Assembly: GCA_044378215.1 (NCBI GenBank)
Contig: JBILXR010000001.1
Span: forward strand, 1-53,400
DNA: 53,400 nucleotides
DNA from: Opitutales bacterium
GTDB lineage: Bacteria > Verrucomicrobiota > Verrucomicrobiia > Opitutales > UBA953
Reading direction: 5' to 3'
A program made the position numbers and the translations under genes. This document shows positions 1-24,346 of this stretch, in pieces (the stretch's first letter is position 1; each line of letters begins with the position of its first letter). The notes under the pieces were generated by a model that saw nothing but the letters and a program-made list of their open reading frames with translations, was not told the DNA's origin and searched no databases.

Positions 1-75
1 AAGGTCAGAGAAATGAACGCGCAGGGGATCGGCGAGAGCCGCCCAAGGACAGAATCCGGCTTATAGTGTATGGCT

Positions 76-113
76 CAAAAGACGGAGGGCCGAACGGAAA
101 CGTTCGGCCCTCC
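76..113 (-). terminator. Rho-independent terminator downstream of citrate synthase
   Basis: Perfect 13-bp stem GGAGGGCCGAACG (84-96) / CGTTCGGCCCTCC (101-113) with a GAAA loop. On the minus strand it is followed by GTCTTTTG. It lies about 25 nt after the gltA stop. Confidence 0.7.
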
Positions 114-137
114 CCCTTTGCGGACTATCCAGGTCGC

Positions 138-1469
<1,332 letters not shown>

Positions 1470-5658: not shown

Positions 5659-6168
5659 TCAGACCTCGATGGCGACGGGATCGTCGGACGGCATGACCAT
5701 CTCCGGCGCGACCAGGACCGGCATCGTGAGCTCAGGGACTTCGACGGCCTGCGAAAGGTCGGCTTCCTGGGCGACATCCGTGATCAGTCGCACTGGCATA
5801 TCCGCGGAACCAAGGACCGGTTCCTCGGCGGGCACCTGTTCTTCGACGTAGGAGAGCAGGCCGGAGTATTCGGCGGGAATCGTGACCTGCAGCTCGACGA
5901 AGACCAGGGCGAGCAGGCAGAGATGGGCGAAAGAGCGGCCCATGCGCTGACCATAGCCGTGCAGCCAGGACATCGCTCCGGCCGATGAACGCTCTTCGCG
6001 ATGGCTCAGGCAGGCGAGCTGGGCCTGATGCAGGCGGGCGCAGGCCTGGAAGCGGGCGCGCAAGGCCGGCGAGGCGCTCAACGCGGCGCGCAGACGGGTG
6101 ACCTGGTCGGCGGAGGCGCTCCCCTCTAGGAAAAGGGCGACGAGAGATTCGAATTCGGCGGCGCTCAT
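5659..6168 (-). CDS. Putative anti-sigma factor (single-pass membrane protein)
   Basis: The internal ATG at 6168 forms an ATGA overlap with the sigma-factor stop (6165-6167). 169 aa with an N-terminal helical region and one hydrophobic segment (FAHLCLLALVFVELQV). The call rests on position and architecture, not on a recognised motif. Confidence 0.5.
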   Translation of the reverse strand: MSAAEFESLVALFLEGSASADQVTRLRAALSASPALRARFQACARLHQAQLACLSHREERSSAGAMSWLHGYGQRMGRSFAHLCLLALVFVELQVTIPAEYSGLLSYVEEQVPAEEPVLGSADMPVRLITDVAQEADLSQAVEVPELTMPVLVAPEMVMPSDDPVAIEV

Positions 6169-6755
6169 CCGCGGAACTCCTCTCCCATGAGTTCGCGCAG
6201 GGCTTCGCGGGCGCGGTTGATGCGGCTCTTGACCGTGCCGATGGAGAGCCCGAGGTCTTCGGCGATCTCTTCGTACGACATATTGCGGACATTGCGCATC
6301 GTCAGGATACGAGCGTGTTCCGGCTTCAATTGTTCCATGCACTCGGCCACTTTGTGGACGAATTCGTTATGCTGGGCCTCGTGGCCGGGCCCCTGGGCGC
6401 CGTCCGAAAGGATATCGTGCAGGGTGGCGCCGGGATCGTCGCCGAGGTCGGCGTCGAGCGACATGGACTGGTCCCGCTTGCGGCGGCGCCAGTACCAGTA
6501 GCGGTTCCGAGCGAGATTCGTGCCGATCTGGTGGATCCAGGTCGAAAAAGTGGCGGTTCCGCGGAAAGAGGCCAGCACCCGGTGGGCCCGGATGAAGGTG
6601 TCCTGGGTGATTTCCTCGGCGTCCTGGCGGTTACGGAGCAAGGAGAAGACTTTAGCGAAGATCCGACCCTGATACTTCAGGACCAACTCGTTGTAAGCCG
6701 ACAGGTCCCCCTGACGGGCGCGGTCCAAGGCGGACTGGTCGGCTTCGGTCTCCAT
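6165..6755 (-). CDS. ECF-type RNA polymerase sigma factor (sigma-70 group 4)
   Basis: Region 2 (DAEEITQDTFIRA...FSTWIHQIGTNLARN) and region 4 (RNMSYEEIAEDLGLSIGTVKSRINRAR) are recognisable. Confidence 0.9.
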   Translation of the reverse strand: METEADQSALDRARQGDLSAYNELVLKYQGRIFAKVFSLLRNRQDAEEITQDTFIRAHRVLASFRGTATFSTWIHQIGTNLARNRYWYWRRRKRDQSMSLDADLGDDPGATLHDILSDGAQGPGHEAQHNEFVHKVAECMEQLKPEHARILTMRNVRNMSYEEIAEDLGLSIGTVKSRINRAREALRELMGEEFRG

Positions 6756-6872
6756 AGGGGTACGATTACTTTAGGGGAAAACAGGCCTGAGTCGACCCAT
6801 AATCGTGATGACATATCTTTACAATTACCCCTCGCTAATCAACCTCTTTAAAACCCCGACTTTCAGGAGCCG

Positions 6873-8600
6873 ATGTTCACGACCCGCAAGAAAACCCCTG
6901 CCCTCTCCTGGGTCAATTGCCTCAGCGGCGAAAAAGGCTCCACCGCCGACCTCCCGTCTTCGCTTCCCGGCGACTCCCCCCACCCCGCCCTGAACCTGGT
7001 CCCGGCCGGAGAACTCGTGGCACTCGAGGCTTCGGGCGAAGGCGTCGCCTTGGTCAACGGCTCGCCGCTGAACCAGCGGCTGGCCGTGACCGAACCCACG
7101 ACGGTCCAGCTACCGTCGGCCCTGCTCGTCGTCGCCCCCCGCACCCAGGAAGACTTTGCGTTCATCCGGACCGACCTCTGGGTCCTGTTCGACGCGCGCA
7201 CCGGCGATCAGCTCGGCGAATTCCCGGCGACGGGACTCCTCGACGCCGCCGGTCGCTCCGGCCTGCCGCCCGACGCCCTCGCCTGCACGCCGGTCGGCCT
7301 GGAGGTCGGCTTCAACCTCGCGCAGATCGCCCCCCTGCTCGCTCCGCCCGAAGAGCCGGTCGTCCGCCGCGAGAGCCAGGCGTTGCTCGCCGCCGAACAG
7401 AACCGCGGCGCGCACGTCTGCCCGGTCTGCTGGACGCGCTTCGACGCCGGCGACGCGCTGAGCATCGCGGTGCATGAGAAGCTGCGCGGCGACCCGATCC
7501 TCGGCTCCGACGCACGCCTGCGCTTCCAGCCCACGCGCTTCAATGATCAAGGACTCGCCCTCGACCCGATGGGCCTGGCCTGCACCGACATCGCCTGCCC
7601 GCACTGCCGCCGGCAGCTCCCGCCTGGTTACCTCGAACGCCCCCACCGCATCATCTCGCTCATCGGCGCCCCCAGCGCCGGCAAGTCCTACTATCTCGCC
7701 GTGCTCACCCGAGTGCTCCAGGACCGCCTGCCGGAGGACTTCTCGCTCGCCTTCAAGGACGGCGACCCGAGCGGTAACATGCTGCTCAACCAGATGCGCA
7801 GCACTCTGTTCTCGGCCGCGACGCCGGAAGACGCGCTGCTCGGCAAGACGGCCCTCGAAGGCGCCACGTACGAGAAGCTCCCGCGCCTCGGCCGAATGGT
7901 CTCCCTGCCCCGTCCGTTCATCTACACGCTCAGCCTCCCCGGGCAACCGGCCTTGGACACCTCGGTCATCCTGTACGACAACGCCGGCGAGCACTTCGAA
8001 CCCGGCATCGACATCCATGACTCGCCTGGCGCGATGCACGTAGCGACTTCGAGCGGGCTGATCTTCCTCTTCGATCCGACCGCCAACGCGCGCTTCAAGG
8101 CCAGGCTCGTCGGCGTCGACGATCCGCAGCTCTCCCTCAAGGGACGCGTCGATCAGCAGGACAGCATCCTCGCCGAGATGGAGACGCGCATGAAGCGCGT
8201 GCTCGGCCTGGCCCACGACCAGCGCATCGCGACGCCGCTCGCCTTCGTCGTCGGCAAGTCCGACACCTGGGAGAAGCTGCTCAGCTCGCCGCTCGAACCC
8301 GTCGTCAAGGCCGGCGTGCTCGACCTCGCCGCCGTCCGGCGTAACTCGGACCGCGTCCGCGAAGTCCTGCTGGCGCTCTGCCCTGGCCTCGTCTCCTCGG
8401 CCGAATCCCTGGCCGAGCAGATCTGCTTCTTCGCCGCCACTTCCTTCGGCCATACGCCGGTGATGATCGGATCCGGCCCGAACAAGGGACGTATCGCGCC
8501 GGATCCGCAGCGGCTCGCGCCAGCCCACGTGGAAGAACCCCTCTACTGGCTCTTGCATCTCTCCTCGCCGGCGATGTTCCCCTCGACCCCTACCTCCTGA
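6873..8600 (+). CDS. Zinc-ribbon-containing P-loop GTPase-like protein, first gene of the four-gene module
   Basis: AGGAG lies 4 nt upstream of the ATG. CPVC (7419-7430) and CPHC (7596-7607). Walker A GAPSAGKS (7665-7688). DNAG = DxxG (7977-7988). GKSD = [NT]KxD-like (8253-8264). Confidence 0.75.
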   Translation: MFTTRKKTPALSWVNCLSGEKGSTADLPSSLPGDSPHPALNLVPAGELVALEASGEGVALVNGSPLNQRLAVTEPTTVQLPSALLVVAPRTQEDFAFIRTDLWVLFDARTGDQLGEFPATGLLDAAGRSGLPPDALACTPVGLEVGFNLAQIAPLLAPPEEPVVRRESQALLAAEQNRGAHVCPVCWTRFDAGDALSIAVHEKLRGDPILGSDARLRFQPTRFNDQGLALDPMGLACTDIACPHCRRQLPPGYLERPHRIISLIGAPSAGKSYYLAVLTRVLQDRLPEDFSLAFKDGDPSGNMLLNQMRSTLFSAATPEDALLGKTALEGATYEKLPRLGRMVSLPRPFIYTLSLPGQPALDTSVILYDNAGEHFEPGIDIHDSPGAMHVATSSGLIFLFDPTANARFKARLVGVDDPQLSLKGRVDQQDSILAEMETRMKRVLGLAHDQRIATPLAFVVGKSDTWEKLLSSPLEPVVKAGVLDLAAVRRNSDRVREVLLALCPGLVSSAESLAEQICFFAATSFGHTPVMIGSGPNKGRIAPDPQRLAPAHVEEPLYWLLHLSSPAMFPSTPTS

Positions 8601-10729
8601 TGCCCCTCCAACTCGTCTTCACTTCCGCTCCGCAAGGCCTCACCCCGGGACGCTCGGGCTATTGCACCGTCGCCCGGCACCGCGCCGTGCCGGACCGCCT
8701 CGCCCAGCTGCTGGAATCTGTCGGGACTCCGCATGACCTGCCTCAGGGCGAGACGTTCACCTTCCGCACGCTCGACGCCGGCGACCGCCATTGGTTCGTA
8801 CTCTCCCGCTTCGTGGCCCGCGGCCTCGATTACACGCAGCGCGACAACCGTCTCGCCCATCACCTGATCTTCACCGCCGACGAGGCGGCGTTGCTCGCTC
8901 CGCCGGCCGCCCTGGCCGCCCGCTGGAAAGGCTGGCTCGCCGAATGGAACGGCGCCCCGGCCTGGCTCGAAGGCGAAGACCGCCCGCTGGCCCTCGAACC
9001 GGCCATCGCGCTTTCGCCCGCCCTTACCTGGCGCGAGATCACCGGTACCGGCGCCAAGGCCGCCTGGCTGATCGACGCGACCGGCGCGACCACGGTCGGC
9101 CTGCGCAACCCGCCCGCCAACGCGAAGCTGCTGCGTCTCTTCGCCGAATCTTCCGCTCTGATCGGCAAGGCCGCCTGGCATGCGACGTTCACCACCGACG
9201 CCCGGCTCACGGGCGAAGCAGGCTTCGTCTGGGCCGCCCACGCCGAGCGCCCCGCGGCGATCGACTTCGCCGCCGCCAGAGCGCAGCCGGCGCCGACCGG
9301 CGAACTCGCGCGCCAGGCCGCGGCCGGCCTGACTTCGCCGAAGACCACGCCGACCGCGGCCACGCACCGACCCGGCGCTGCGCCGACCGCGCCGCAAGCA
9401 GGCTCAGCCACGCCGTGGATCATCGGCGGAGTTCTCCTCATGGTCGCCGCCGGCCTGGCCTTCCTCTTCACGAATCGTACCGAGACGCCAGCGCCCGCAC
9501 CCGCGCCGGCGCCGGTCGTCGCCCCCGCGCCCTCCGCCGCCGACCTCGCTCAAACCGAGGAGATCCTGCGCGTGAACCAGGCGGTCAACGAGATTCTCGG
9601 CCTGCTCGAGTCCGGCGAAATGCTGCCGGCCGCGCGCCTATGGCTGGAGACTGATCGGCGCGACCCTCGTCGCCTGGGCAACTACAAGGAGCAGATCCTT
9701 CCGCGCATCCTGAACGGCTACTCCGCCGGCGCCGTCAAAGGGCTGCGTAATAAGATCGAACATCGCGACATCCTGGATGACCCCAAGGCCAGCCAGGCCG
9801 CCCACACCGAGGCCCTCGAAGCCCTCCGCGTCGGCAGACAGCTCGCCGTCCCGGAAGACGCGGCATGGAAGCAGCTGCTCGAGATCAAAGATCGCACCCT
9901 CCTCCTGCCCTCGCTCGACGTCCGGCCCACACTCGCCGTCCCGGGTCAGTGGCGCTTCTCCGACACCGGCCCGAAGTCTCCCACCGAAGCCGAGTTCCCC
10001 TTGTCGCGTTCCGCGGTGGACCAGCTGAACAAATGGGTCACCGAAGCCGGCGCTTCCGCGCGCTCCGCCGCGCAGATCCGCCTCCGCGTCCTGCCCTTGC
10101 TCTCACCCCATCAGCGCGACGACCGGACGCCTTACGTCAACGGTGAGATCCGTGTCAGCGGACCGACGACCTGGTTCGAATCGACGCCCGAACCGGGCAA
10201 GCTCGCCGCCATCGGCATCGGCCTCGGCCCCCGCCGTAACGTCGTGTCGCTCATCCTCTCCCCGACCGACGGCGCCCGCTCCGCCAACCTGCTCATCGAG
10301 ATCATCCTTCCCAAGGGCGATCGCCGCGTACTCGCCCTGATCGGCGACGCCGCGCTGCTCCGTCCGCTTGACCTCGGCGTCGGCGCCCTCCGTTTCGACG
10401 CGGACACGGGCGTCATTCGTCCTGCCCCATGGGCCGAGACCGCCGTCAACGCCTTCGTCTGGGCCCACGGCCAGGTCGGCCTCTATCCGTCCGGTCACGG
10501 CTTCCCGGACCGCGACCTGCCCTCCGTCCGCGCGACGCGCTCGCTGCTCGAGACCGACCTGCTCCGCCTCGACGGGAAGCAGGGCCCCGATGCCCCTCCG
10601 TATGAAGAAGTCGCCGCCCGCCGCAAAGCCTTCCGTGAGGGCAAGCTGATCGAAGCCGGCGCGCCCTGGGGAGTTCAGGCCGTCGACGCCGACGGGACCG
10701 CCGGCCCACGCCTCATCGAGTTCCGATGA
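8600..10729 (+). CDS. Single-pass membrane protein with GAP1-like (GTPase-associated protein 1) N-terminal domain
   Basis: The start overlaps the upstream stop (TGATG). The N-terminus MPLQLVFTSAPQGLTPGRSGY...RDNRLAHHLIF resembles, from memory, the GAP1-N signature. A TM helix WIIGGVLLMVAAGLAFLF (about 9416-9472) is flanked by Pro/Ala-rich linkers. A C-terminal region of about 400 aa follows. Confidence 0.6.
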   Translation: MPLQLVFTSAPQGLTPGRSGYCTVARHRAVPDRLAQLLESVGTPHDLPQGETFTFRTLDAGDRHWFVLSRFVARGLDYTQRDNRLAHHLIFTADEAALLAPPAALAARWKGWLAEWNGAPAWLEGEDRPLALEPAIALSPALTWREITGTGAKAAWLIDATGATTVGLRNPPANAKLLRLFAESSALIGKAAWHATFTTDARLTGEAGFVWAAHAERPAAIDFAAARAQPAPTGELARQAAAGLTSPKTTPTAATHRPGAAPTAPQAGSATPWIIGGVLLMVAAGLAFLFTNRTETPAPAPAPAPVVAPAPSAADLAQTEEILRVNQAVNEILGLLESGEMLPAARLWLETDRRDPRRLGNYKEQILPRILNGYSAGAVKGLRNKIEHRDILDDPKASQAAHTEALEALRVGRQLAVPEDAAWKQLLEIKDRTLLLPSLDVRPTLAVPGQWRFSDTGPKSPTEAEFPLSRSAVDQLNKWVTEAGASARSAAQIRLRVLPLLSPHQRDDRTPYVNGEIRVSGPTTWFESTPEPGKLAAIGIGLGPRRNVVSLILSPTDGARSANLLIEIILPKGDRRVLALIGDAALLRPLDLGVGALRFDADTGVIRPAPWAETAVNAFVWAHGQVGLYPSGHGFPDRDLPSVRATRSLLETDLLRLDGKQGPDAPPYEEVAARRKAFREGKLIEAGAPWGVQAVDADGTAGPRLIEFR

Positions 10730-10732
10730 TCC

Positions 10733-13681
10733 ATGCAGGCCGAACGCCTCATCGCCCGCATCCGCGGCCAGCTCGAACTCGGGACGCCTGAGCTCGAGGC
10801 CCGTTCGCTGGCCGGTGAATACGCGGCGCTGTGCCTGCGCGCGCGCGAACGTCTGGAGCAATGCGCCACGCTCGCGCGCGGAGGCAACGAACACGCCGCC
10901 TTCCAGGCCGCGGAAGCAGAACCTGACCTGCTCGGCCTCTGCGCCCTGCTGAGCTTCGCGGAATCCGACCGCTGGCATGCGTTGTGCCGCGAACGCGGCC
11001 TGCCGGCCGGCTTCCCGCTCGACGGCCAGCACGTGCTCGCGGTCGAAAGCCTGTACGGCCGCGTCATCGGCGAAAGCCACCCGCTCTACCGCGACTACCG
11101 CGACGCCATCCGTCGCCGCGACGAAGACCGCGCGCTGGCGGTGCTGCGCTCGATCGTCCGCATCAACCCCGACGACCCGAACGCGCAGTCCGAACTCGCG
11201 CGCCTCTCCGCGAAGTTCCTGCGCGAATCGCTGGGCCGGGTCGGCGCCTTCTTCGCCGAAGCCCGCGCCGCCGAGGCCGCCGAGCTCATGCAGCGCATGG
11301 AGCGCTTCGGGGCCAACGAACTCGCCGGCGAGCCGCGCTGGGACGACGCCCGCGCCCGACGCGCGACCTGGCTGCGGGCCAACGCGGCCGAGCAAGCCAC
11401 GAAGCTCGTCGCCGAAGCCGCCGAGGCCCGCGCCGGCGGTCACTGGGAAGCCTGCGCCGCCGCCTTGGGCCGCACGCGCGCGCTCGAACGCGATCATCAG
11501 CTCAACCTTTCGCCGGAACTGGTCGCGCAGATGGCCGAACTCGAAGCCTGGGCCGGCGAACTCGCCGCGACGGCCGAAGCCGAAGCCGCCCTCCGCGCCG
11601 CCGTCGAAGGATTGCTCGAAGAGTGGCGCATCCTCGGCCTGGAGGCCGCACGCGGCTCTTCGCCTGCGATCCTCATCGTGCGGCTCAGCGCCTGGCTCGA
11701 CCGCGCGGGCCCGCACGCCGAGCGGCTGCCCGAAGGACTGCTGCGCGAAGCCAGCGCGCTCCGTCAGGCCACGCGCACCCGCCTCAACCGTCGCTACCTG
11801 CTGCTGACCTCCTCCTGGGTCGTCGGCCTGCTGCTCGTCGTGGGGGCCGTCGTCGCCGTCAACCTCCAGCGGCAGCAGGAGGAAGAGACGGTCGGCCGCC
11901 TTTCCGAGGCCGCGCGGCTCGTCGAACTGCACGACCACGCCGCCGCCCTGCGCGCCTTGGATGAATTCGAACGCGGCGGGGGGGCGGCGGAGTTGGAACG
12001 ACGGAAGGCGGACACGCGCTCCCTCCGCGAAGCGCTCGCCAAGCAGATGACACTCGAGCAGCAGCTACGGCTCGAGGCCCGTCAACTGGCGGAGACCGGC
12101 CGGCCGGGCATCAATGACGCCAACGTCGCCGGGCTATGCCGTCGCACCGCCGCCTACCTCAAGGCGTTGGAGCCAGCCGGCGCGGCCATGCGGGAACGGC
12201 TGCGGACCGTGCTGCCGGACGCGGAAGGCTTGTCCGCCGCCGTGCAGAATCACCTGGGCAAACTTCGGCAGGAACTCGCCGTGCGCACCGCTTCGCTGAA
12301 CAAGACGGTGAGCGACAACGCCGCGATCGGCGATCCGCTGGCGGCCATGGAGAACCTCGAACGTCTCCGCACTTTGTTGAAGATCCTGGGTGAGGCGGGC
12401 GACCGCGACCTCGACTCCGCCGCCGCCGCCGCCGACCGCGGCGAGATCCGTCTCGCGGGCGACCGCAAGATCGCCGCCGCCCTCCGTACGCTGGATGCCG
12501 CCAGTGACCTCGGCACCTACCTCGCCGCCCTCGCCGACGCCGCCGCGAACACGGCCGGCGAGAAGACCGACCTCGGCGCCCGCGCCTCGTTCGTCTTCAC
12601 GCGCGCCTCCGCCCTGCAGGCCCTGCCGCGCCCCGTGCTCGCGCCGCGCGTCGCCGCGATGTGGGACGCCGCCTTGGCCGCCGACCCGAAAGGCGTCTTC
12701 CAGCACGCCGTGCTGACCGAGACCGAGAAGAGCCTGCTGCGCCGCATCTCCGACACCTCGCTCGCGGACAGCCTCCAGCGCGCCACGCTGAGCCTCTACT
12801 CCGTCCGCGGCGTCACGGCCGGCCGCTCCGTCTACGTGGTCGGACCGATCGCCGAGACCAAGAACGCCTTCACCGACGGCGACGAGTACACCCAGAAGGC
12901 GAAGGAGCTGACCCGCGACGGAGCCGTGCTCGAAGGCGCGTGGCGCCGCCGGGAGTTCAACAACGGCCTCCGCAACGGCGAAGAACTCACCTCGCTCGCC
13001 CCGATCCCGGAACTTGAGTTCATCCGTCAGGTGACCCGCTTCCAGGACGCCCGCACCGGACAGCTGCTCGAGCCTCCGCTGCGCACGATGGAACGCATCC
13101 GCCGCAGCGACTCGCCGTACCCCGAACTGCGCGCGTTCCAACTCCAGGAACTCTACCGGCTCGCCGCCGGCCGCCCCGACGTCTGGGGCCTGCTCTTCTC
13201 GCCGAGCGCGCAGCGCGACGCCGAACAGTTGCGCCGCATCACCCAGAACGCGCTCGAGCCCTACGACTACCTCTTCCGCGACAAGTGGGCCGACGTGAAG
13301 GCCGAACTCCGCGCCTTCCTCGTCCCGCAAGGCGGCGCCGGCTACGCCGAAGAAGCCCGCTTCTGGCGCGAGACGTTCGCGCAGTTACGCACCCGCCGCC
13401 TGGTCTTCGCCGGCATGGTCGGCCGTGACGGTACGCCCCGCCTGCGGGAAGCGACGAAGGGCAGCGCTCTCTACGGCCTCGATAACGAGGGTAAGGTCGC
13501 GGTGCTCTTCCGCGTGGGCGACGACGGCCTGCCGAAGCGCGTCGCCGACGCCGCGCCGCTTTCGCCGCTCCTGCGTTATCCCGGACTCGTCTCCGAAGCG
13601 GCCCAGGCCGCCGGCATCCCCAAAGGACTGAACCCGCCCGACGGCGGCTGGGAGACCCTGCTCCAAGGGCGCGACCTCTGA
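10733..13681 (+). CDS. Large (982 aa) predominantly alpha-helical single-pass membrane protein, possible GASH-like partner
   Basis: Starts 3 nt after the upstream stop. Composition is rich in Ala/Leu/Glu/Arg, consistent with helices. One TM segment YLLLTSSWVVGLLLVVGAVVAV (about 11795-11863). Confidence 0.55.
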   Translation: MQAERLIARIRGQLELGTPELEARSLAGEYAALCLRARERLEQCATLARGGNEHAAFQAAEAEPDLLGLCALLSFAESDRWHALCRERGLPAGFPLDGQHVLAVESLYGRVIGESHPLYRDYRDAIRRRDEDRALAVLRSIVRINPDDPNAQSELARLSAKFLRESLGRVGAFFAEARAAEAAELMQRMERFGANELAGEPRWDDARARRATWLRANAAEQATKLVAEAAEARAGGHWEACAAALGRTRALERDHQLNLSPELVAQMAELEAWAGELAATAEAEAALRAAVEGLLEEWRILGLEAARGSSPAILIVRLSAWLDRAGPHAERLPEGLLREASALRQATRTRLNRRYLLLTSSWVVGLLLVVGAVVAVNLQRQQEEETVGRLSEAARLVELHDHAAALRALDEFERGGGAAELERRKADTRSLREALAKQMTLEQQLRLEARQLAETGRPGINDANVAGLCRRTAAYLKALEPAGAAMRERLRTVLPDAEGLSAAVQNHLGKLRQELAVRTASLNKTVSDNAAIGDPLAAMENLERLRTLLKILGEAGDRDLDSAAAAADRGEIRLAGDRKIAAALRTLDAASDLGTYLAALADAAANTAGEKTDLGARASFVFTRASALQALPRPVLAPRVAAMWDAALAADPKGVFQHAVLTETEKSLLRRISDTSLADSLQRATLSLYSVRGVTAGRSVYVVGPIAETKNAFTDGDEYTQKAKELTRDGAVLEGAWRRREFNNGLRNGEELTSLAPIPELEFIRQVTRFQDARTGQLLEPPLRTMERIRRSDSPYPELRAFQLQELYRLAAGRPDVWGLLFSPSAQRDAEQLRRITQNALEPYDYLFRDKWADVKAELRAFLVPQGGAGYAEEARFWRETFAQLRTRRLVFAGMVGRDGTPRLREATKGSALYGLDNEGKVAVLFRVGDDGLPKRVADAAPLSPLLRYPGLVSEAAQAAGIPKGLNPPDGGWETLLQGRDL

Positions 13682-13683
13682 AC

Positions 13684-14301
13684 ATGGCTCCGACGAACGC
13701 ATTCCGACTCCGCTGGAAAGGCGCCGTGACCGGCCCCTTCCCGCTCGCCCGCGTGCAGGAACTCCTCCGGGCCGGAGAGATCAGCCTGCTCCACAACATC
13801 GAAGTCGACGGGGGCTGGATGACGCTGCGTGACTATCTCCGCGGCGCCGGCCTGACCCGCGTGATCTCGCCTTCCGCCGAAGTCGCGCCCGGCGACCAAC
13901 CGCCGCGCCCGCCGGGGTTCACGCCGCATGACGGCGCAGGGCTCCTGCCCGACGTCGGCCGGTCCGTCGCGGGCGAGAACCTCGAACGCACCGTCCGCGC
14001 CGGCTACCTCTGGTGCGGCTCGACCTTCCTGCTCCCACCGCTCTTCGCGCTGGCGGTCTACGGCTGGCACGTGGTCTCACCGGAGACTCCGCCGATATCT
14101 CTCTTCATTCTGCTGACGTTCACCTCGGCGGTCGGTTGTTTCCTGCCCGTCGCGTTCGTGCGCCGGATCGGCCGGACTCTCGACCAGGAAGGTCTGGCGG
14201 AAATCCGCCAGACCCAGTCCGGCCTCGCCCTGGCTTTGGCCTGCCTAGGCCTGCTTCTTTGGCTCTGGTGCTTCTGGATCATCGTCCACCAGCGCCCCTG
14301 A
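13684..14301 (+). CDS. GYF_2-like domain protein with three predicted TM helices
   Basis: Starts 2 nt after the upstream stop. The N-terminus FRLRWKGAVTGPFPLARVQELLRAGEISLLHNIEVDGGWMTLRDYL resembles GYF_2/DUF4339. Three hydrophobic segments follow. Confidence 0.6.
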   Translation: MAPTNAFRLRWKGAVTGPFPLARVQELLRAGEISLLHNIEVDGGWMTLRDYLRGAGLTRVISPSAEVAPGDQPPRPPGFTPHDGAGLLPDVGRSVAGENLERTVRAGYLWCGSTFLLPPLFALAVYGWHVVSPETPPISLFILLTFTSAVGCFLPVAFVRRIGRTLDQEGLAEIRQTQSGLALALACLGLLLWLWCFWIIVHQRP

Positions 14302-14360: not shown

Positions 14361-14437
14361 GGTAGTGTAGCTCAGTTGGTTAGAGCGAGGGACTCATAAG
14401 CCCTAGGTCGGCAGTTCGATCCTGCCCACTACCACCA
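14361..14437 (+). tRNA. tRNA with CAU anticodon (elongator Met, or Ile2 if lysidine-modified), CCA encoded
   Basis: Cloverleaf folded by hand. Acceptor GGTAGTG/CACTACC, D arm GCTC..GAGC, anticodon loop CTCATAA, T arm GGCAG-TTCGATC-CTGCC, discriminator A plus CCA. Positions 1-72 are paired, so it is not an initiator. Confidence 0.9.
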
Positions 14438-17642: not shown

Positions 17643-18640
17643 ACTGCGTCATCTTCGGAGCCGGCGGCTGGGGTACGGCCATGGCGATCCACCTCGCCCG
17701 CCAAGGCCAGACCGTCACGCTCGTGCCGCGTCGCGCCGAACAAGCCCTCGCCCTCGCCACTACGCGGGAGAACACCGACTACCTGCCCGGCCATCGCCTT
17801 GATGATTCGATTCAGATCGGCCTCGAACCTCTGCCGGCGCTGATGGACGCCGACCTGGTCTTCCTCGCCTGCCCTTCCAAAGGCCTGCCAGAACTGCTCG
17901 CCGCGATCGGCCCCGCCGTCCGCGACTCCGGCGCCAAGATGGCGATCTCGCTCTGCAAAGGACTCGATCTCGCCACCCTGCGCCGGCCTTCGGAACTCAT
18001 GGCCGCGGCCTTCGGCGACCTTCCCGTCGCCACGCTGAGCGGACCGAGCAACGCCGATGAAGTCGCGCAGGGACTACCCACGGCTCTCGTCCTTGCTTCC
18101 ACCGCCGGCGACGCCCTGATGAAAGAAGTCCAGGCGGCCGTCAGCGGACCGACGCTGCGCGCCTACACCTCGACCGACCTCGTCGGCGTCGAGATCGGCG
18201 GTACGCTCAAGAACGTCTACGCCCTCGGCGCAGGTCTCTGCGATGGTCTCGGACTGGGCTCGAACGCCAAGGCCGCGATGCTCACGCGCTCCCTGCAAGA
18301 GATGACCCGCCTCGGCGAAGCGCTCGGCGCGCGCCCGGAGACTTTCCTCGGCCTCGGCGGTGTCGGCGATCTGATGGCCACGGCCCACGGCTCGTGGAGC
18401 CGCAACCGCTCGCTCGGCGAACAGCTGGCCCGGGATCCGCAAGGAACCCTCGCGTCCCTCGCTGCGCGCAAGGAAGCCGTCGAAGGACATCGCGCCGCCG
18501 AAGCGCTCTCGAAGCTCGCGACCAGCCGCGGCCTCACCGCCCCGATCCTTTTCTGCCTGCACGCGATCCTTTACAAGGGGCTCGACCCGCGCGCCGGGGT
18601 CGTCGCCTTGATGACCCGCGACCTCCGTCCGGAGGCATGA
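17639..18640 (+). CDS. gpsA: NAD(P)H-dependent glycerol-3-phosphate dehydrogenase
   Basis: FGAGGWGTAMA Rossmann motif and GTLKNVYALGAG. The start has a 4-nt overlap with panB. Confidence 0.92.
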   Translation: MNCVIFGAGGWGTAMAIHLARQGQTVTLVPRRAEQALALATTRENTDYLPGHRLDDSIQIGLEPLPALMDADLVFLACPSKGLPELLAAIGPAVRDSGAKMAISLCKGLDLATLRRPSELMAAAFGDLPVATLSGPSNADEVAQGLPTALVLASTAGDALMKEVQAAVSGPTLRAYTSTDLVGVEIGGTLKNVYALGAGLCDGLGLGSNAKAAMLTRSLQEMTRLGEALGARPETFLGLGGVGDLMATAHGSWSRNRSLGEQLARDPQGTLASLAARKEAVEGHRAAEALSKLATSRGLTAPILFCLHAILYKGLDPRAGVVALMTRDLRPEA

Positions 18641-19098
18641 GCGAGGACGTCGTCGAGACGCGGCGATCCGGGATCGCCGGCCGAGGACTCTTCGCCCGCC
18701 GAGATTTCGCCAGCGGCGAACGCCTCGCGCCCTACCGCGGACCGACGACCACGACGCCTCCCGTCCGGCCGGAGACCGGCGAAGTCTTCGCCTTGGAAGT
18801 GGCCGCGGGGCTCTGGCTCGACGGGTCGGGCGTCGATAACCCCGGCCGCTGGGCCAACCATTCCTGCGAGCCCAATGCCGAACTCATCTGGCATGACTCA
18901 AGCAGGGAAGCCTGGCTGACAAGCCTCCGCCCCCTGCAAGCCGGGGAGGAAATCACCTTTGATTACGGATTTTCTTTGGCGGACAGCCTCTTCCACCCGT
19001 GCTCCTGCCGGACCCCCGGATGCATCGGCCGGATCATCGCCGCCCCGCTCCGTCCTGCCTTGCGCCGACACCTGCGTTTTTCACGTCCAAGGGATTGA
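18637..19098 (+). CDS. SET-domain protein (putative protein lysine methyltransferase)
   Basis: The internal ATG at 18637 forms an ATGA overlap with the gpsA stop. GIAGRGLFA, NHSCEPNA and EEITFDYG motifs plus a C-terminal Cys cluster (CSCRTPGC). Confidence 0.8.
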   Translation: MSEDVVETRRSGIAGRGLFARRDFASGERLAPYRGPTTTTPPVRPETGEVFALEVAAGLWLDGSGVDNPGRWANHSCEPNAELIWHDSSREAWLTSLRPLQAGEEITFDYGFSLADSLFHPCSCRTPGCIGRIIAAPLRPALRRHLRFSRPRD

Positions 19099-22524: not shown

Positions 22525-23394
22525 TCAGGCCGCGAACGCCTTGACGGTCTCGAGGTGGAGCTCGGCGACCTGCTGCAGGGTCAGTCCGCCCCACTTGTAG
22601 CCGCCGGCGAGGGCGAAGATGTGCGGGATCTTCCGGGCCCGGGCCCACTGGACGACACGCCGCTCACGCTTCAGGATCATCTCCTTGGTGATGCCCTTCA
22701 TGCCGCCGGCTTTCTCATAGGTGTCCATGCCGGCGTTGTAGATCAGGAAGTCCACCCGTTCCAAGGCGTTCAGAGCCTCCTCGACGTGGTCGAGGTAGCG
22801 CTTAGGCTGCTCGACCTCGACGTAGAAGTGGCGATCGCGGTCCGTCGGCTCCCAGGAATCGAAGGAGTTGACGGTGACATCGGCGAGATACACCTGCGGG
22901 TGATTGCCGAGGATATCAAAGGTCCCCCCGCCGGCATGCGCGTCGAGGTCGAGGATGCCGACGGTCTTGACCTTCTTGAGCGCCTCGAGTGCGGCCAGGG
23001 CCAACCCATTGAACTGGCAGAAGCCGTTACCGGAATCACGGCGGGCATGATGCAGGCCGCTCGAGAGACTGCCGGAACGTCCGCTCTTCAAGGCTTCCTT
23101 CACGGCGTCGCGCATCCCGCCCGTCGAGGCGAGGATGCTGTCCACCAACGGCTGCGACCAAGGTCCGACCTCCAGGAAGGCGCCTTTGTCCTCGAACGTG
23201 CTCCGGACGTGTTCGGACGTGTGGATCAGTTCAAGCTCCTTGCGCGTGGCGAGCTTCGGAGCCTCTAGGCAGACCTCCCCGGCCTCGCCGGCTTCGATCA
23301 GGCCGGCGACGAGCTTGGACTTGCTGACCGTCTCCATCTTACCGTCGACGGCGTAAACGGGACTATAATAGACGGTCAAAGGAGAGTTAGGCAT
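22525..23394 (-). CDS. Histone deacetylase-family (arginase/deacetylase fold) amidohydrolase
   Basis: GLHHARRDSGNGFCQFN, DLDAHAGGGT, YNAGMD and AGGY motifs. I prefer the start at 23394 (MPNSPLTVYY) because the longer ORF to 23568 would overlap the divergent PARG gene. Confidence 0.8.
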   Translation of the reverse strand: MPNSPLTVYYSPVYAVDGKMETVSKSKLVAGLIEAGEAGEVCLEAPKLATRKELELIHTSEHVRSTFEDKGAFLEVGPWSQPLVDSILASTGGMRDAVKEALKSGRSGSLSSGLHHARRDSGNGFCQFNGLALAALEALKKVKTVGILDLDAHAGGGTFDILGNHPQVYLADVTVNSFDSWEPTDRDRHFYVEVEQPKRYLDHVEEALNALERVDFLIYNAGMDTYEKAGGMKGITKEMILKRERRVVQWARARKIPHIFALAGGYKWGGLTLQQVAELHLETVKAFAA

Positions 23395-23455
23395 ACGTAG
23401 GTTATGCCAGCGACTGACCTCTCCGTCAAATGGCTGCCCTGTCATAGGTTGCGGA

Positions 23456-24346
23456 TTGGCTTCAGGCGTCCGCGGGTCCATGCTCACCCGCACGCCGCCC
23501 ATGCCCTTCGACCCCAAGATTCCACGAGAATTCGCTAATAAAATGGGCCGGGAGGCCATGCAGATCATCGAGCTGGGCCTTTACGCCTCGCCCACCAGCC
23601 GGCAAGTCGACGTCGCGGCCGATATCGCCTCAGCCGTCGCCCGGACCACGCACCTCCCGCCGGACCACCGCCACACCTTCCCCCGGACCGGCGACCACGC
23701 CACCGTCATCGAAGTGACCGAGGCGACTTCCCTTTCGGTCGCCCGACGCCATCACCACGCCGGACTCCGCTCAGTCGTACTCAACTTCGCCTCACCGACC
23801 GTGCCCGGCGGCGGCTTCCTCGCCGGCGAACGCGCGCAGGAAGAATACCACTGCCGCTCCACGGCCCTCTTCGCCTGCCAGGCCGGCGGGCCGATGTACG
23901 CGTTCCACCTTCACCAGGCCAACGCGCTCCGCTCCGACGCGATGATCTATTCGCCCGACGTGCCGGTCTTCCGCGACGACGACCATCATCTGCTCGAGGA
24001 CCCCTTCAAGGTCGCGTTCATCTCCGCTGCCGCCTGCGATGCCCGCGACGTGGCTCCGCTCGACCAGCCGAAGATCGCCGGCGCGATGGGCGCCCGCATC
24101 GTCAAGGTCCTCGCCGCCGCCCAAGCCAACGGACACGACGCGCTGGTGCTCGGCGCCTGGGGCTGCGGCAACTTCGCCAACGATCCGGCCCTCATCGCCG
24201 ACCTCTTCCGCCAGACCCTGCAAGGGCCGTTCAAGGGAGCCTTCCGTCGGGTGAGTTTCGCGGTCATCGATAGCTCGCCCGAACGCCGCTGCCTGAGCCA
24301 GTTCCAGCTGGCCCTCGGACAGAAGACCTCGCCGCTCCACAACTGA
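23456..24346 (+). CDS. Bacterial-type poly(ADP-ribose) glycohydrolase-like macrodomain protein (TIGR02452/DUF2263-like)
   Basis: PARG signature GGG-X7-QEE (PGGGFLAGERAQEE, 23807-23842). VLNFAS and LVLGAWGCGNF motifs. The start is uncertain (23456, 23480 or 23501). Confidence 0.8.
   Translation: MASGVRGSMLTRTPPMPFDPKIPREFANKMGREAMQIIELGLYASPTSRQVDVAADIASAVARTTHLPPDHRHTFPRTGDHATVIEVTEATSLSVARRHHHAGLRSVVLNFASPTVPGGGFLAGERAQEEYHCRSTALFACQAGGPMYAFHLHQANALRSDAMIYSPDVPVFRDDDHHLLEDPFKVAFISAAACDARDVAPLDQPKIAGAMGARIVKVLAAAQANGHDALVLGAWGCGNFANDPALIADLFRQTLQGPFKGAFRRVSFAVIDSSPERRCLSQFQLALGQKTSPLHN

Follow-up and report, generated by a model that had tools for sequence, protein, structure and literature searches.

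The stretch of DNA analysed here, 53,400 nt from an Opitutales bacterium (GCA_044378215.1, JBILXR010000001.1, positions 1-53,400 of the forward strand; hereafter the window), contains four packed genes on one strand, which we name P1 to P4. P1 encodes a zinc-ribbon GTPase, P2 a membrane protein with an N-terminal GAP1 domain, P3 a large membrane protein of a family that has no Pfam annotation, and P4 a small membrane protein with a GYF_2-like N-terminal domain. The genes for an extracytoplasmic function (ECF) sigma factor and a putative anti-sigma factor lie upstream and diverge from P1, and a tRNA-Met(CAT) gene lies downstream. In the following we describe this module, its inheritance and its partners in related loci, and we propose that it may work as a signalling complex of the inner membrane that is coupled to the ECF pair.

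A coupled four-gene module

The four genes are joined by very short junctions: P1 and P2 overlap by 1 nt (TGATG), a gap of 3 nt separates P2 from P3, and one of 2 nt separates P3 from P4. The coordinates, lengths and spacing of these open reading frames (ORFs), as given in a first-pass annotation of this DNA, were all reproduced from the sequence, and the same four products are returned by the ENA and JGI gene callers. The packed ORFs are real genes, as the gene callers agree, about 130 related loci carry them, and the ratio of nonsynonymous to synonymous substitution rates (dN/dS) lies at 0.05-0.22. Long ORFs of 482, 611 and 398 aa overlap the module on the minus strand in this region of 70% GC; we rejected them as genes and consider them composition artefacts of the high GC, since neither gene calls nor conservation give them support. 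An AGGAG element stands 8 nt upstream of the P1 start codon, and no AGGAG-like element was seen before the P2, P3 or P4 starts when the junction sequences were read directly, which fits re-initiation. We found no promoter-like site and no convincing terminator inside the module.

The first-pass annotation had described a single tightly coupled module and had named the co-occurrence of the four genes in other genomes as a check. The order and the junctions across loci support this description, and the four genes are kept together in about 130 related loci. The surroundings are also as it had described them, with the ECF sigma/anti-sigma pair on one side, the tRNA on the other and core metabolism around: PtsI is encoded upstream of the module, and RsfS, NadD, LpxI and PanB are encoded downstream. 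In 12 of 12 Opitutales loci checked, the tRNA-Met(CAT) gene directly follows P4 on the same strand, and thus it may be co-transcribed with the module.

P1 and P2 belong to the DO-GTPase and GAP1 families

By its motifs and family matches, P1 is a P-loop TRAFAC GTPase, probably of the DO-GTPase2 family, and it is predicted to hydrolyse GTP. Its best Pfam families are DO-GTPase2 and DO-GTPase1. The DO-GTPase2 profile (PF19993) matches the window protein with 26.6 bits (cut-off 27, E 5.7e-6) and also matches 18 of 18 P1 orthologs, none of which scores better than the window protein; many close P1 homologs carry a precomputed PF19993 match as well. The Walker A, DxxG, KxD-like and CxxC...CxxC motifs that had been read from the sequence before are all present (Table 1), and GAPSAGKS and YDNAGE are invariant even when distant homologs are included, as is expected of a TRAFAC GTPase with a Walker B glutamate. 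Such a glutamate after DxxG is the hallmark of the DO-GTPases (Kaur et al. 2020, PMC7159879). In the zinc-ribbon region, C183, C186, C242, C245, H181, H201 and H244 are invariant among 18 sequences, and the four cysteines are also invariant across distant P1 homologs; the GTPases of N2-type systems usually have two N-terminal zinc ribbons (Kaur et al. 2020, PMC7159879).

The AlphaFold2 (AF2) model of P1, with a mean confidence score (pLDDT) of 68.7, has a beta-rich N-terminal domain, a poorly resolved zinc-ribbon region and a G domain. The confidence in the ribbon region is below 50, and P1 may have either one ribbon or two. Foldseek returned 60 PDB matches for this model at E<=1e-3 (best E 1.6e-5), all of them TRAFAC GTPases such as G-alpha, atlastin, GBP and EF1A; the matches come mainly from the G domain and single out no particular family. 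With these generic matches and no match in NCBIfam, P1 stands outside the housekeeping GTPase families, as the first reading of the sequence had held. The alignment of the P1 hidden Markov model (HMM) to distant GTPases begins at HMM position 10 or 35, so most of the N-terminal domain is kept in them. By eye, this domain looks FHA-like, a pattern that is visible in the distant homologs (alignment A7). The hydropathy profile of P1 has no transmembrane (TM) peak, and P1 is directly adjacent to P2 in all loci long enough to show both.

The N-terminus of P2 is a GAP1-N2 domain (PF20013; 59 bits against a cut-off of 24, E 6.9e-16, aa 4-122), which is found in 20 of 20 P2 orthologs (best E 4e-20). 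The GAP1-N domain that the first-pass annotation had suspected here is therefore real, and it is of type N2. A second conserved domain (aa ~123-245) is common to distant GAP1 proteins and highly conserved in alignment A3; the P2 ortholog HMM aligns distant GAP1 proteins only over HMM positions 1-243/263. GAP1-M and GAP1-C had no Pfam match at E<=1 in the 20 orthologs. Past its TM helix, P2 continues with a Pro/Ala-rich linker and then a region of about 390 aa, which is presumed to be periplasmic. This post-TM region varies among lineages, and the median ORF length is 750 aa in loci that carry the ECF pair vs 993 aa in loci that carry MotA/ExbB-type proteins (see below).

Both families were defined by Kaur, Burroughs, Iyer and Aravind (eLife 2020, PMC7159879; Pfam PF19993 and PF20013). 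They described GTPases with the Walker B glutamate and N-terminal zinc ribbons whose GAP1 gene lies directly downstream, and reported the N2 subtype from Actinobacteria, Firmicutes, Planctomycetes, Verrucomicrobia and Chloroflexi. The GAP1 protein is often fused to TM segments, for which a membrane-proximal role was described, and the partners in Planctomycetes include proteins in which a GYF domain is joined to trypsin or to a region rich in TM segments (PMC7159879). The whole class was interpreted as regulated conflict systems, the argument being that variable effectors stand beside a constant core (PMC7159879). MotA, ExbB, TolQ, rhomboid and RDD are not mentioned in the main text of that paper, and the available part of its supplement has no Opitutales or GYF entries (PMC7159879). 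Our literature search found no experimental or later paper on the DO-GTPase/GAP1 families.

Since P1 is probably a DO-GTPase2 and P2 clearly a GAP1-N2 protein, the placing of the module among these GTPase-centred predicted systems, which the first-pass annotation had made, holds, and so does its remark that none has been characterised experimentally. The idea that membrane anchoring and the additional GYF membrane protein make this an unusual variant has to be given up to the extent that TM-fused GAP1 and, in Planctomycetes, GYF-TM partners were already described by Kaur et al., who also reported the systems from Verrucomicrobia.

P3 represents a large family of single-pass membrane proteins

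P3 belongs to no Pfam, NCBIfam or PADLOC family. A profile search that covered 1.84 billion cluster representatives found 939 representatives (clustered at 50% identity) of the P3 family at E<=1e-3 and 236 at E<=1e-30, most of which are 900-1050 aa long and aligned end to end; thus, P3 is no oddity of one lineage. Of 134 full-length representatives, 127 have a single TM helix, which lies near positions 344-377. Hydropathy peaks were found in each of P2, P3 and P4, in agreement with the TM helices noticed before, and basic residues lie on the N-terminal side of the P3 helix, as read directly from the sequence.

The AF2 model of P3 (pLDDT 77.7) is helical up to aa 359, followed by a low-confidence TM segment, a helical part (390-672) and a mixed alpha/beta part up to about aa 950, with strands at 681-756 and 891-948 and helices between them. 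Foldseek gave no PDB match at E<=1e-3; the neighbours of the model are generic alpha-solenoid/TPR structures only (E>=0.01, TM-score <0.1). The most conserved block of the family is the N-terminal helical domain, whose conserved residues across the 134 representatives include R40, C44, E61, D68, W81, C85, Y119, R123, N145 and D148. A second conserved block, at about aa 780-900, has W819, G820, W847 and G895.

Two known components were considered for P3 and rejected. The first-pass annotation had read it as a GASH-type partner; there is no Pfam GASH match in P3 (E<=1) or in nine distant proteins of its family (E<=0.01), and GASH accompanies GAP1-N1, not the N2 type found in P2 (Kaur et al. 2020, PMC7159879). 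The fibronectin type III (FNIII) component, which Kaur et al. assign to N2-type systems, is not supported either, as the fn3 profile matches none of the four proteins and the AF2 model of P3 is mostly helical. The nine distant members have no convincing Pfam match at all, the sole hit being COG4_N on one of them, below the cut-off. When PDB sequences were searched with profiles of P1, P2, P3 and P4, no relative with a solved structure turned up. A PADLOC scan of the four proteins gave nothing usable, and an NCBIfam scan had no match for any of them.

P4 carries a divergent GYF_2-like domain on membrane helices

The N-terminal domain of P4 (P4-N) is, from profile comparisons, best called a divergent GYF_2-like adaptor domain. 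The Pfam GYF_2 profile (PF14237) matches 0 of 20 P4 orthologs even at E<=10, and distant P4-N homologs match it weakly, with E 0.015-0.18 and over profile positions 1-27 only. When the P4-N family profile was compared with GYF_2 by hhalign, the probability was 94.7% (E 6e-8) over only the first 28 of about 50 columns, with a reference set of only 3 Pfam-validated GYF_2 segments. Because a partial profile match stands beside the lack of a Pfam match, we call P4-N GYF_2-like and not an established GYF_2 member. Of the earlier label of P4 as a GYF-TM protein, the TM helices stand, and the GYF part is a reasonable lead that falls short of membership.

The P4-N HMM (aa 1-56) also matches residues 16-56 of a 472-aa protein that has two Pfam GYF_2 stretches, and in distant loci it hits the N-terminal ends of proteins whose genes, one or more per locus, come directly after P3-like genes (E 1e-6 to 9e-21). 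There, the domain is fused to RDD, to a rhomboid protease, to a short helical protein or to other TM regions. Paralogous P4-N domains were found neither in the window nor in the 9 loci searched for them. The membrane part of P4 has strong hydropathy peaks at aa 141-159 and 183-201 and a third conserved hydrophobic stretch at about aa 108-130 (alignment A2). We considered whether P4, with its three TM helices, might be MotA/ExbB-like and rejected the idea, since P4 has no similarity to such proteins and no match in the window was found with the MotA HMM.

Between the domain and the helices lies a linker (13837-14004, aa 52-107) with PPxPG or PPPPG in 41 of 55 Opitutales orthologs and in none of the distant P4-N proteins. 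Eukaryotic GYF domains bind PPG-type ligands, which this motif resembles, and by this analogy the linker hints at binding in cis or between subunits.

The module is inherited vertically in Opitutales

A scan of species-representative genomes gave 97 relatives, of which 80 loci were fetched (L001-L080), nearly all from metagenome-assembled genomes (MAGs) of freshwater Opitutales. There are 1329 P1 homologs at E<=1e-5. The best 120 of these are 62-96% identical and mostly about 570 aa long, and the source names that bear a taxon are Opitutales, Opitutia or Verrucomicrobiota, together with one partial protein under Planctomycetota.

The order PtsI-anti-sigma-ECF, P1-P4, tRNA-Met, RsfS-NadD-LpxI-PanB is the same in all Opitutales loci of sufficient length. 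In each of about 55 such loci, the four genes are present at nearly fixed lengths (within about 3%, about 7% for P4), namely 565-586 aa for P1, 702-714 aa for P2, 968-987 aa for P3 and 190-215 aa for P4, and across these loci the junctions range from -4 to +8 nt, with one of +20. Identity to the window is 62-97% for P1 and 57-99% for PtsI. In close pairs (dS 0.2-0.5), dN/dS is 0.08-0.12 for P1, 0.14-0.22 for P2, 0.12-0.21 for P3 and 0.05-0.22 for P4; for the neighbouring housekeeping genes it is 0.04-0.07 (PtsI), 0.08-0.16 (RsfS) and 0.11-0.24 (NadD). No P1 homolog was found on 72,556 plasmids or in 50,697 phage records.

Taken together, the synteny, the purifying selection and the absence of plasmid or phage copies mean that the module is vertically inherited, constrained and cellular. 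We saw no effectors that vary among close relatives, composition and lengths being fixed in the Opitutales loci, and this pattern is unlike variable effectors beside a constant core. That the module evolves like a housekeeping locus had been overlooked in the first-pass annotation, as had the linkage of the ECF sigma/anti-sigma pair to it.

Some irregular records were seen in this set. In L080 (7678-9972), a 764-aa protein with a PEP-CTERM-like C-terminus is encoded between P4 and tRNA-Met, the sole break of synteny that we saw. A truncated P3 (641 aa) in L056 and a fused P1-P2 (1283 aa) in L069 look like assembly frameshifts and not like real variants. The records of L004, L016, L035, L053 and L080 are labelled Polynucleobacter, Klebsiella, Akkermansia muciniphila or Enterobacteriaceae; their locus is of the Opitutales type, and they are probably mislabelled or contaminated bins.

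The core is accompanied by an ECF pair or by a MotA/ExbB-type cluster

The ECF sigma gene encodes a 196-aa protein that has, of the Sigma70 regions, only 2 and 4, as PF04542 and PF08281/PF04545 match an identical product in precomputed annotation. Its partner has no Pfam family at E<=0.1. The label of putative anti-sigma factor comes from its position, the 4-nt overlap, the conservation of the pair and an N-terminal pattern seen by eye; an HMM that combines the window protein with its counterpart in a non-syntenic locus (L094) finds the partner beside the ECF gene in non-syntenic loci.

The intergenic region between the ECF gene and P1 has a core, ATAATCGTGNTGACAT, at 6800-6830 of the window, which is conserved in an alignment of 69 distinct intergenic regions. 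No convincing sigma-70 consensus or ECF-type promoter was found in this region, the conserved core included; the core is absent from L094, and no motif is common to the two intergenic regions. The ECF sigma factor itself shows 92-100% identity in many genomes where the identity of PtsI is only 63-75% (L001-L080), and its dN/dS of 0.000-0.016 at dS 0.2-0.6 lies far under that of all neighbouring genes.

Distant P3 homologs were traced to their contigs, of which one (L090) was too fragmented to interpret. A scan of metagenome contigs, for which a distant member headed the P1 alignment, yielded at least 530 relatives, and 80 loci were retrieved. All distant and metagenome loci were scored with local HMMs, whose E-values refer to small local databases. 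The order P1-P2-P3-P4-N protein is present in 42 of the 80 metagenome loci; in the other 38 the module runs off the contig, and no deviating order was seen. Of the 60 metagenome loci whose upstream sequence is 1.5 kb or longer, 36 have an ECF sigma/anti-sigma pair divergently beside P1. In 9 of the 35 loci that extend far enough downstream, and in 6 other distinct loci, the core is followed by a protein of the MotA/ExbB family and by X and Y, two membrane proteins with coiled coils (~280-315 aa, no Pfam family); examples are among L084-L088, L092, L093 and L140-L171 (e.g. L087:8888-11544). Within the 53-kb window there is no homolog of MotA/ExbB, X or Y anywhere.

Both flanks are visible in 27 loci, of which 20 have the ECF pair without MotA, 7 have MotA without the ECF pair, and none has both or neither. 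Among these loci, the core comes in two mutually exclusive flavours, ECF or MotA/ExbB. At least 8 loci keep the ECF pair without the PtsI/RsfS/NadD synteny (L094, L095, L097, L101, L102, L104, L105 and L156), and L108, with a partial ECF match 1.7 kb from P1, is an uncertain ninth. These loci come from human-gut and other samples and have a GC content of 0.37-0.61; their P1 is 42-57% and their ECF sigma factor 41-57% identical to that of the window. We therefore rejected mere clade synteny as the explanation of the ECF adjacency, because the adjacency persists where all other flanking genes differ, and the ECF sigma factor is, judging by this gene neighbourhood, a probable functional partner of the module. 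Our literature search for a link between ECF factors and GTPases found nothing relevant.

Rhomboid, RDD, trypsin and ankyrin-trypsin genes are sometimes seen near loci of the MotA flavour. Of the other distant P3 loci, L089 (4139-11585) has P3 with a P4-like gene behind a cytochrome-c/HZS_alpha-like protein, and L091 (3140-9661) has P3 alone, with a GYF_2-CD225 protein 3 kb away.

Features and wider neighbourhood of the window

Table 1. Features of the module and of its immediate flanks (positions in the window; aa, residues of the respective protein).
Feature	Position	Strand	Description
Putative anti-sigma factor	5659-6168	-	169 aa, 4-nt overlap with the stop codon of the ECF sigma gene
ECF sigma factor	6165-6755	-	196 aa, divergent from P1; Sigma70_r2 and r4_2
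Divergent ECF/P1 intergenic region	6756-6872	.	117 nt, conserved core ATAATCGTGNTGACAT
P1	6873-8600	+	575 aa, predicted soluble zinc-ribbon GTPase, probable DO-GTPase2 family
P1 beta-rich N-terminal domain	6900-7337, aa 10-155	+	about ten strands, pLDDT ~66-89 (AF2)
P1 zinc-ribbon region	7413-7613, aa 181-247	+	CPVC 183-186 and CPHC 242-245, ~55 residues apart
P1 Walker A GAPSAGKS (K271)	7665-7688, aa 265-272	+	invariant column
P1 Walker B YDNAGE	aa 368-373	+	invariant column
P1 GKSD	aa 461-464	+	invariant column
P2	8600-10729	+	709 aa, predicted single-pass membrane GAP1-type protein
P2 conserved part, predicted cytoplasmic	8609-9334	+	GAP1-N2 (aa 4-122) and second conserved domain (to ~aa 245)
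P2 TM helix	9416-9472, aa 273-291	+	hydropathy peak 2.25
P3	10733-13681	+	982 aa, predicted single-pass membrane protein, large family without Pfam annotation
P3 N-terminal helical domain	10790-11242, aa ~20-170	+	most conserved block; presumed cytoplasmic
P3 TM helix	11798-11854, aa 356-374	+	hydropathy peak 2.41
P3 C-terminal mixed alpha/beta region	12770-13582, aa ~680-950	+	presumed periplasmic
P4	13684-14301	+	205 aa: N-terminal GYF_2-like domain, Pro-rich linker, three hydrophobic helices
P4 N-domain	13696-13842, aa 5-53	+	divergent GYF_2-like adaptor (best designation)
tRNA-Met(CAT)	14361-14437	+	59 nt past P4 (ARAGORN); conserved downstream boundary of the module

Downstream of the housekeeping block, the window encodes a 153-aa SET-domain protein (18637-19098, plus strand), a histone-deacetylase-family protein (22525-23502, minus strand) and a PARG-like (PF10021) protein (23558-24346, plus strand), a trio of chromatin-type domains that is unusual in a bacterium.

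Discussion

We propose that the module forms one DO-GTPase/GAP1-N2 signalling complex at the inner membrane, chromosomally fixed and coupled to the ECF sigma/anti-sigma pair, and we give this proposal a probability of about 0.5. What both flavours conserve is all of P1, residues 1 to ~245 of P2 and 1 to ~170 of P3, and the N-domain of P4; all of these parts are predicted to be cytoplasmic. With these conserved cytoplasmic parts and the variable parts beyond the TM helices, the module can be read as one inner-membrane complex. P1 would be a soluble cytoplasmic GTPase, made of the beta-rich N-domain, a Cys4 zinc-ribbon region and the TRAFAC G domain, and would dock on the cytoplasmic N-domains of P2 (aa 1-245), P3 (aa 20-170) and P4 (aa 5-53). 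P2 and P3 would each span the membrane once, with about 400 and 600 residues, respectively, on the periplasmic side. These outer parts would sense a change in the envelope, which would shift P1 between its GTP and GDP states, and the GAP1-N2 domain of P2 would be the regulator of this state. The state of the switch may then be read out via the ECF pair, in that either the complex controls the anti-sigma factor or the sigma factor drives the operon. In the sister flavour, the same core would be wired to a MotA/ExbB-type proton channel together with two coiled-coil membrane proteins. The mutually exclusive partners appear to be alternative outputs of the same core, or alternative energy and transcription couplings.

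Several observations weigh against this proposal. The Pfam score of P1 lies 0.4 bit under the curated cut-off, and the AF2 confidence is low both in the zinc-ribbon region, where it is below 50, and for the relative arrangement of the domains. The topology of P2, P3 and P4 is a prediction from hydropathy and the positive-inside rule, and the presumed periplasmic parts match no known sensor fold in profile searches against the PDB or, for the P3 model, in Foldseek. The adjacency of the ECF pair shows linkage, not direction. Moreover, 17 of the 20 two-flank loci with the ECF pair are from one syntenic Opitutales clade, so the independent support comes down to about 8 non-syntenic loci, most of them with one flank visible. 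P3, with or without P4, stands without an adjacent GTPase or GAP1 gene in two loci (L089 and L091), and thus the four proteins need not always act together. Finally, the sole published view of the family is that of a conflict or immune role (Kaur et al. 2020, PMC7159879).

This published view, applied to the window, would make the module a conflict or anti-phage system, in which GAP1 and the partners sense an invader, the GTPase sets the threshold as a switch, and P4 or P3 is a membrane-damaging effector. Indeed, P1 and P2 fall into families with that predicted role and the partners are membrane proteins, and the sister loci with P4-N-rhomboid fusions and trypsin-like peptidases nearby recall the deployment of proteolytic effectors. 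However, there is no variable effector position in the clade, where about 55 loci have the same composition and fixed gene lengths, and the purifying selection is at the level of the neighbouring housekeeping genes. The locus is syntenic between core genes instead of lying in an island, PADLOC has no match, no plasmid or phage copy was found, and the genes conserved beside the core encode a sigma factor or a proton channel instead of toxins; we consider an immune role unlikely. At the opposite end, P1 could be a divergent housekeeping GTPase, with the four genes being neighbours by chance or by operon packing. The genes do sit among core metabolic and translation-related genes, but NCBIfam has no match for P1, whose best Pfam families are the two DO-GTPase families, and the four-gene order is kept where the flanks wholly differ. 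This already contradicts such an explanation, which is very improbable.

A different possibility is that the module is itself an output and not a sensor, namely a structural or mechanical machine of the envelope under ECF control, such as a scaffold for maintenance, division or the assembly of surface structures, the GTPase governing its assembly and the MotA/ExbB motor powering it in the sister flavour. The module shares a divergent promoter region with the ECF gene and evolves at a housekeeping-like rate. P3, with its ~980 aa, is helical and scaffold-like, having only alpha-solenoid/TPR-like Foldseek neighbours, and MotA/ExbB with the two coiled-coil proteins follows the core in 9 + 6 loci. 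Yet no ECF-type promoter motif was identified, the window has no MotA/ExbB, X or Y homolog, and one sensor with two alternative outputs would explain the exclusivity of ECF and MotA no less well. We find the idea of such a machine doubtful. As for the core in general, we can tentatively suggest that it is an unrecognised and widespread device of the envelope, gated by a GTPase and not immune in function, whose output would be an ECF sigma factor or a proton-driven motor of the MotA/ExbB type.

DO-GTPase/GAP1 systems are known from one computational paper, where they are filed as diversifying conflict systems. The subfamily described here, with about 130 relatives, has a fixed four-gene core, evolves like housekeeping genes and has an ECF or a MotA/ExbB partner. 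Its evolutionary behaviour and the dichotomy of its partners argue for a biology other than conflict, and the vague label of conflict system can be replaced with a testable proposal, a GTPase switch that would link the envelope to transcription. If true, this would be a new input mechanism for ECF sigma factors, a further route of control beside regulated proteolysis, partner switching and TonB-dependent surface signalling, and it would suggest a function for the large orphan family of P3.

Comparison with known systems

The closest relatives are the GAP1-N2 DO-GTPase systems, which likewise have a zinc-ribbon-bearing TRAFAC GTPase with the Walker B glutamate, followed by a GAP1-N2 protein with a TM helix. 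Unlike them, the locus has one GTPase instead of a paralogous pair, a single-pass helical P3 of about 1000 aa instead of an FNIII component, and no detectable GAP1-M or GAP1-C; it is under purifying selection without variable effectors, and its conserved companion is the ECF sigma/anti-sigma pair or the MotA/ExbB cluster. With the GAP1-N1/GASH systems the locus shares a GTPase, a GAP1 protein and an all-helical third protein; however, its GAP1 is of type N2, GASH has no match, and the N1-type effectors that Kaur et al. name (calcineurin-like, PNPase or TIR domains) are absent.

In function, the proposed complex may be compared with two characterised machines. FecA-FecR-FecI with TonB-ExbB-ExbD transmits a signal across the envelope that ends at a membrane anti-sigma factor and an ECF sigma factor. 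The locus resembles this cell-surface signalling in its anti-sigma/ECF sigma end and, in related loci, in the ExbB-family channel, which is a functional analogy only. Unlike Fec, it has no TonB-dependent receptor, FecR domain or TonB, a GTPase is central, and the ECF and MotA/ExbB partners are mutually exclusive here instead of cooperating. In Myxococcus, the small-GTPase switch MglA with its regulator MglB is coupled to the gliding motor AglRQS, which is TolQR/MotAB-like. The sister flavour alone resembles this arrangement, in that a GTPase switch and a dedicated regulator stand beside a channel machine of the MotA/TolQ type. Unlike MglA, P1 is a 575-aa protein with zinc-ribbon and N-terminal domains and is not Ras-like; unlike MglB, which is a Roadblock/LC7 protein, the regulator would be the unrelated GAP1-N2, and the window has no motor genes.

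The family, the TM-anchored GAP1 and the GYF proteins with TM-rich regions are thus already published. What is new is the fixed P1-P2-P3-P4 order, the large P3 family, the GYF_2-like adaptor on swappable membrane modules, and the rule that the core is accompanied by an ECF pair or by MotA.

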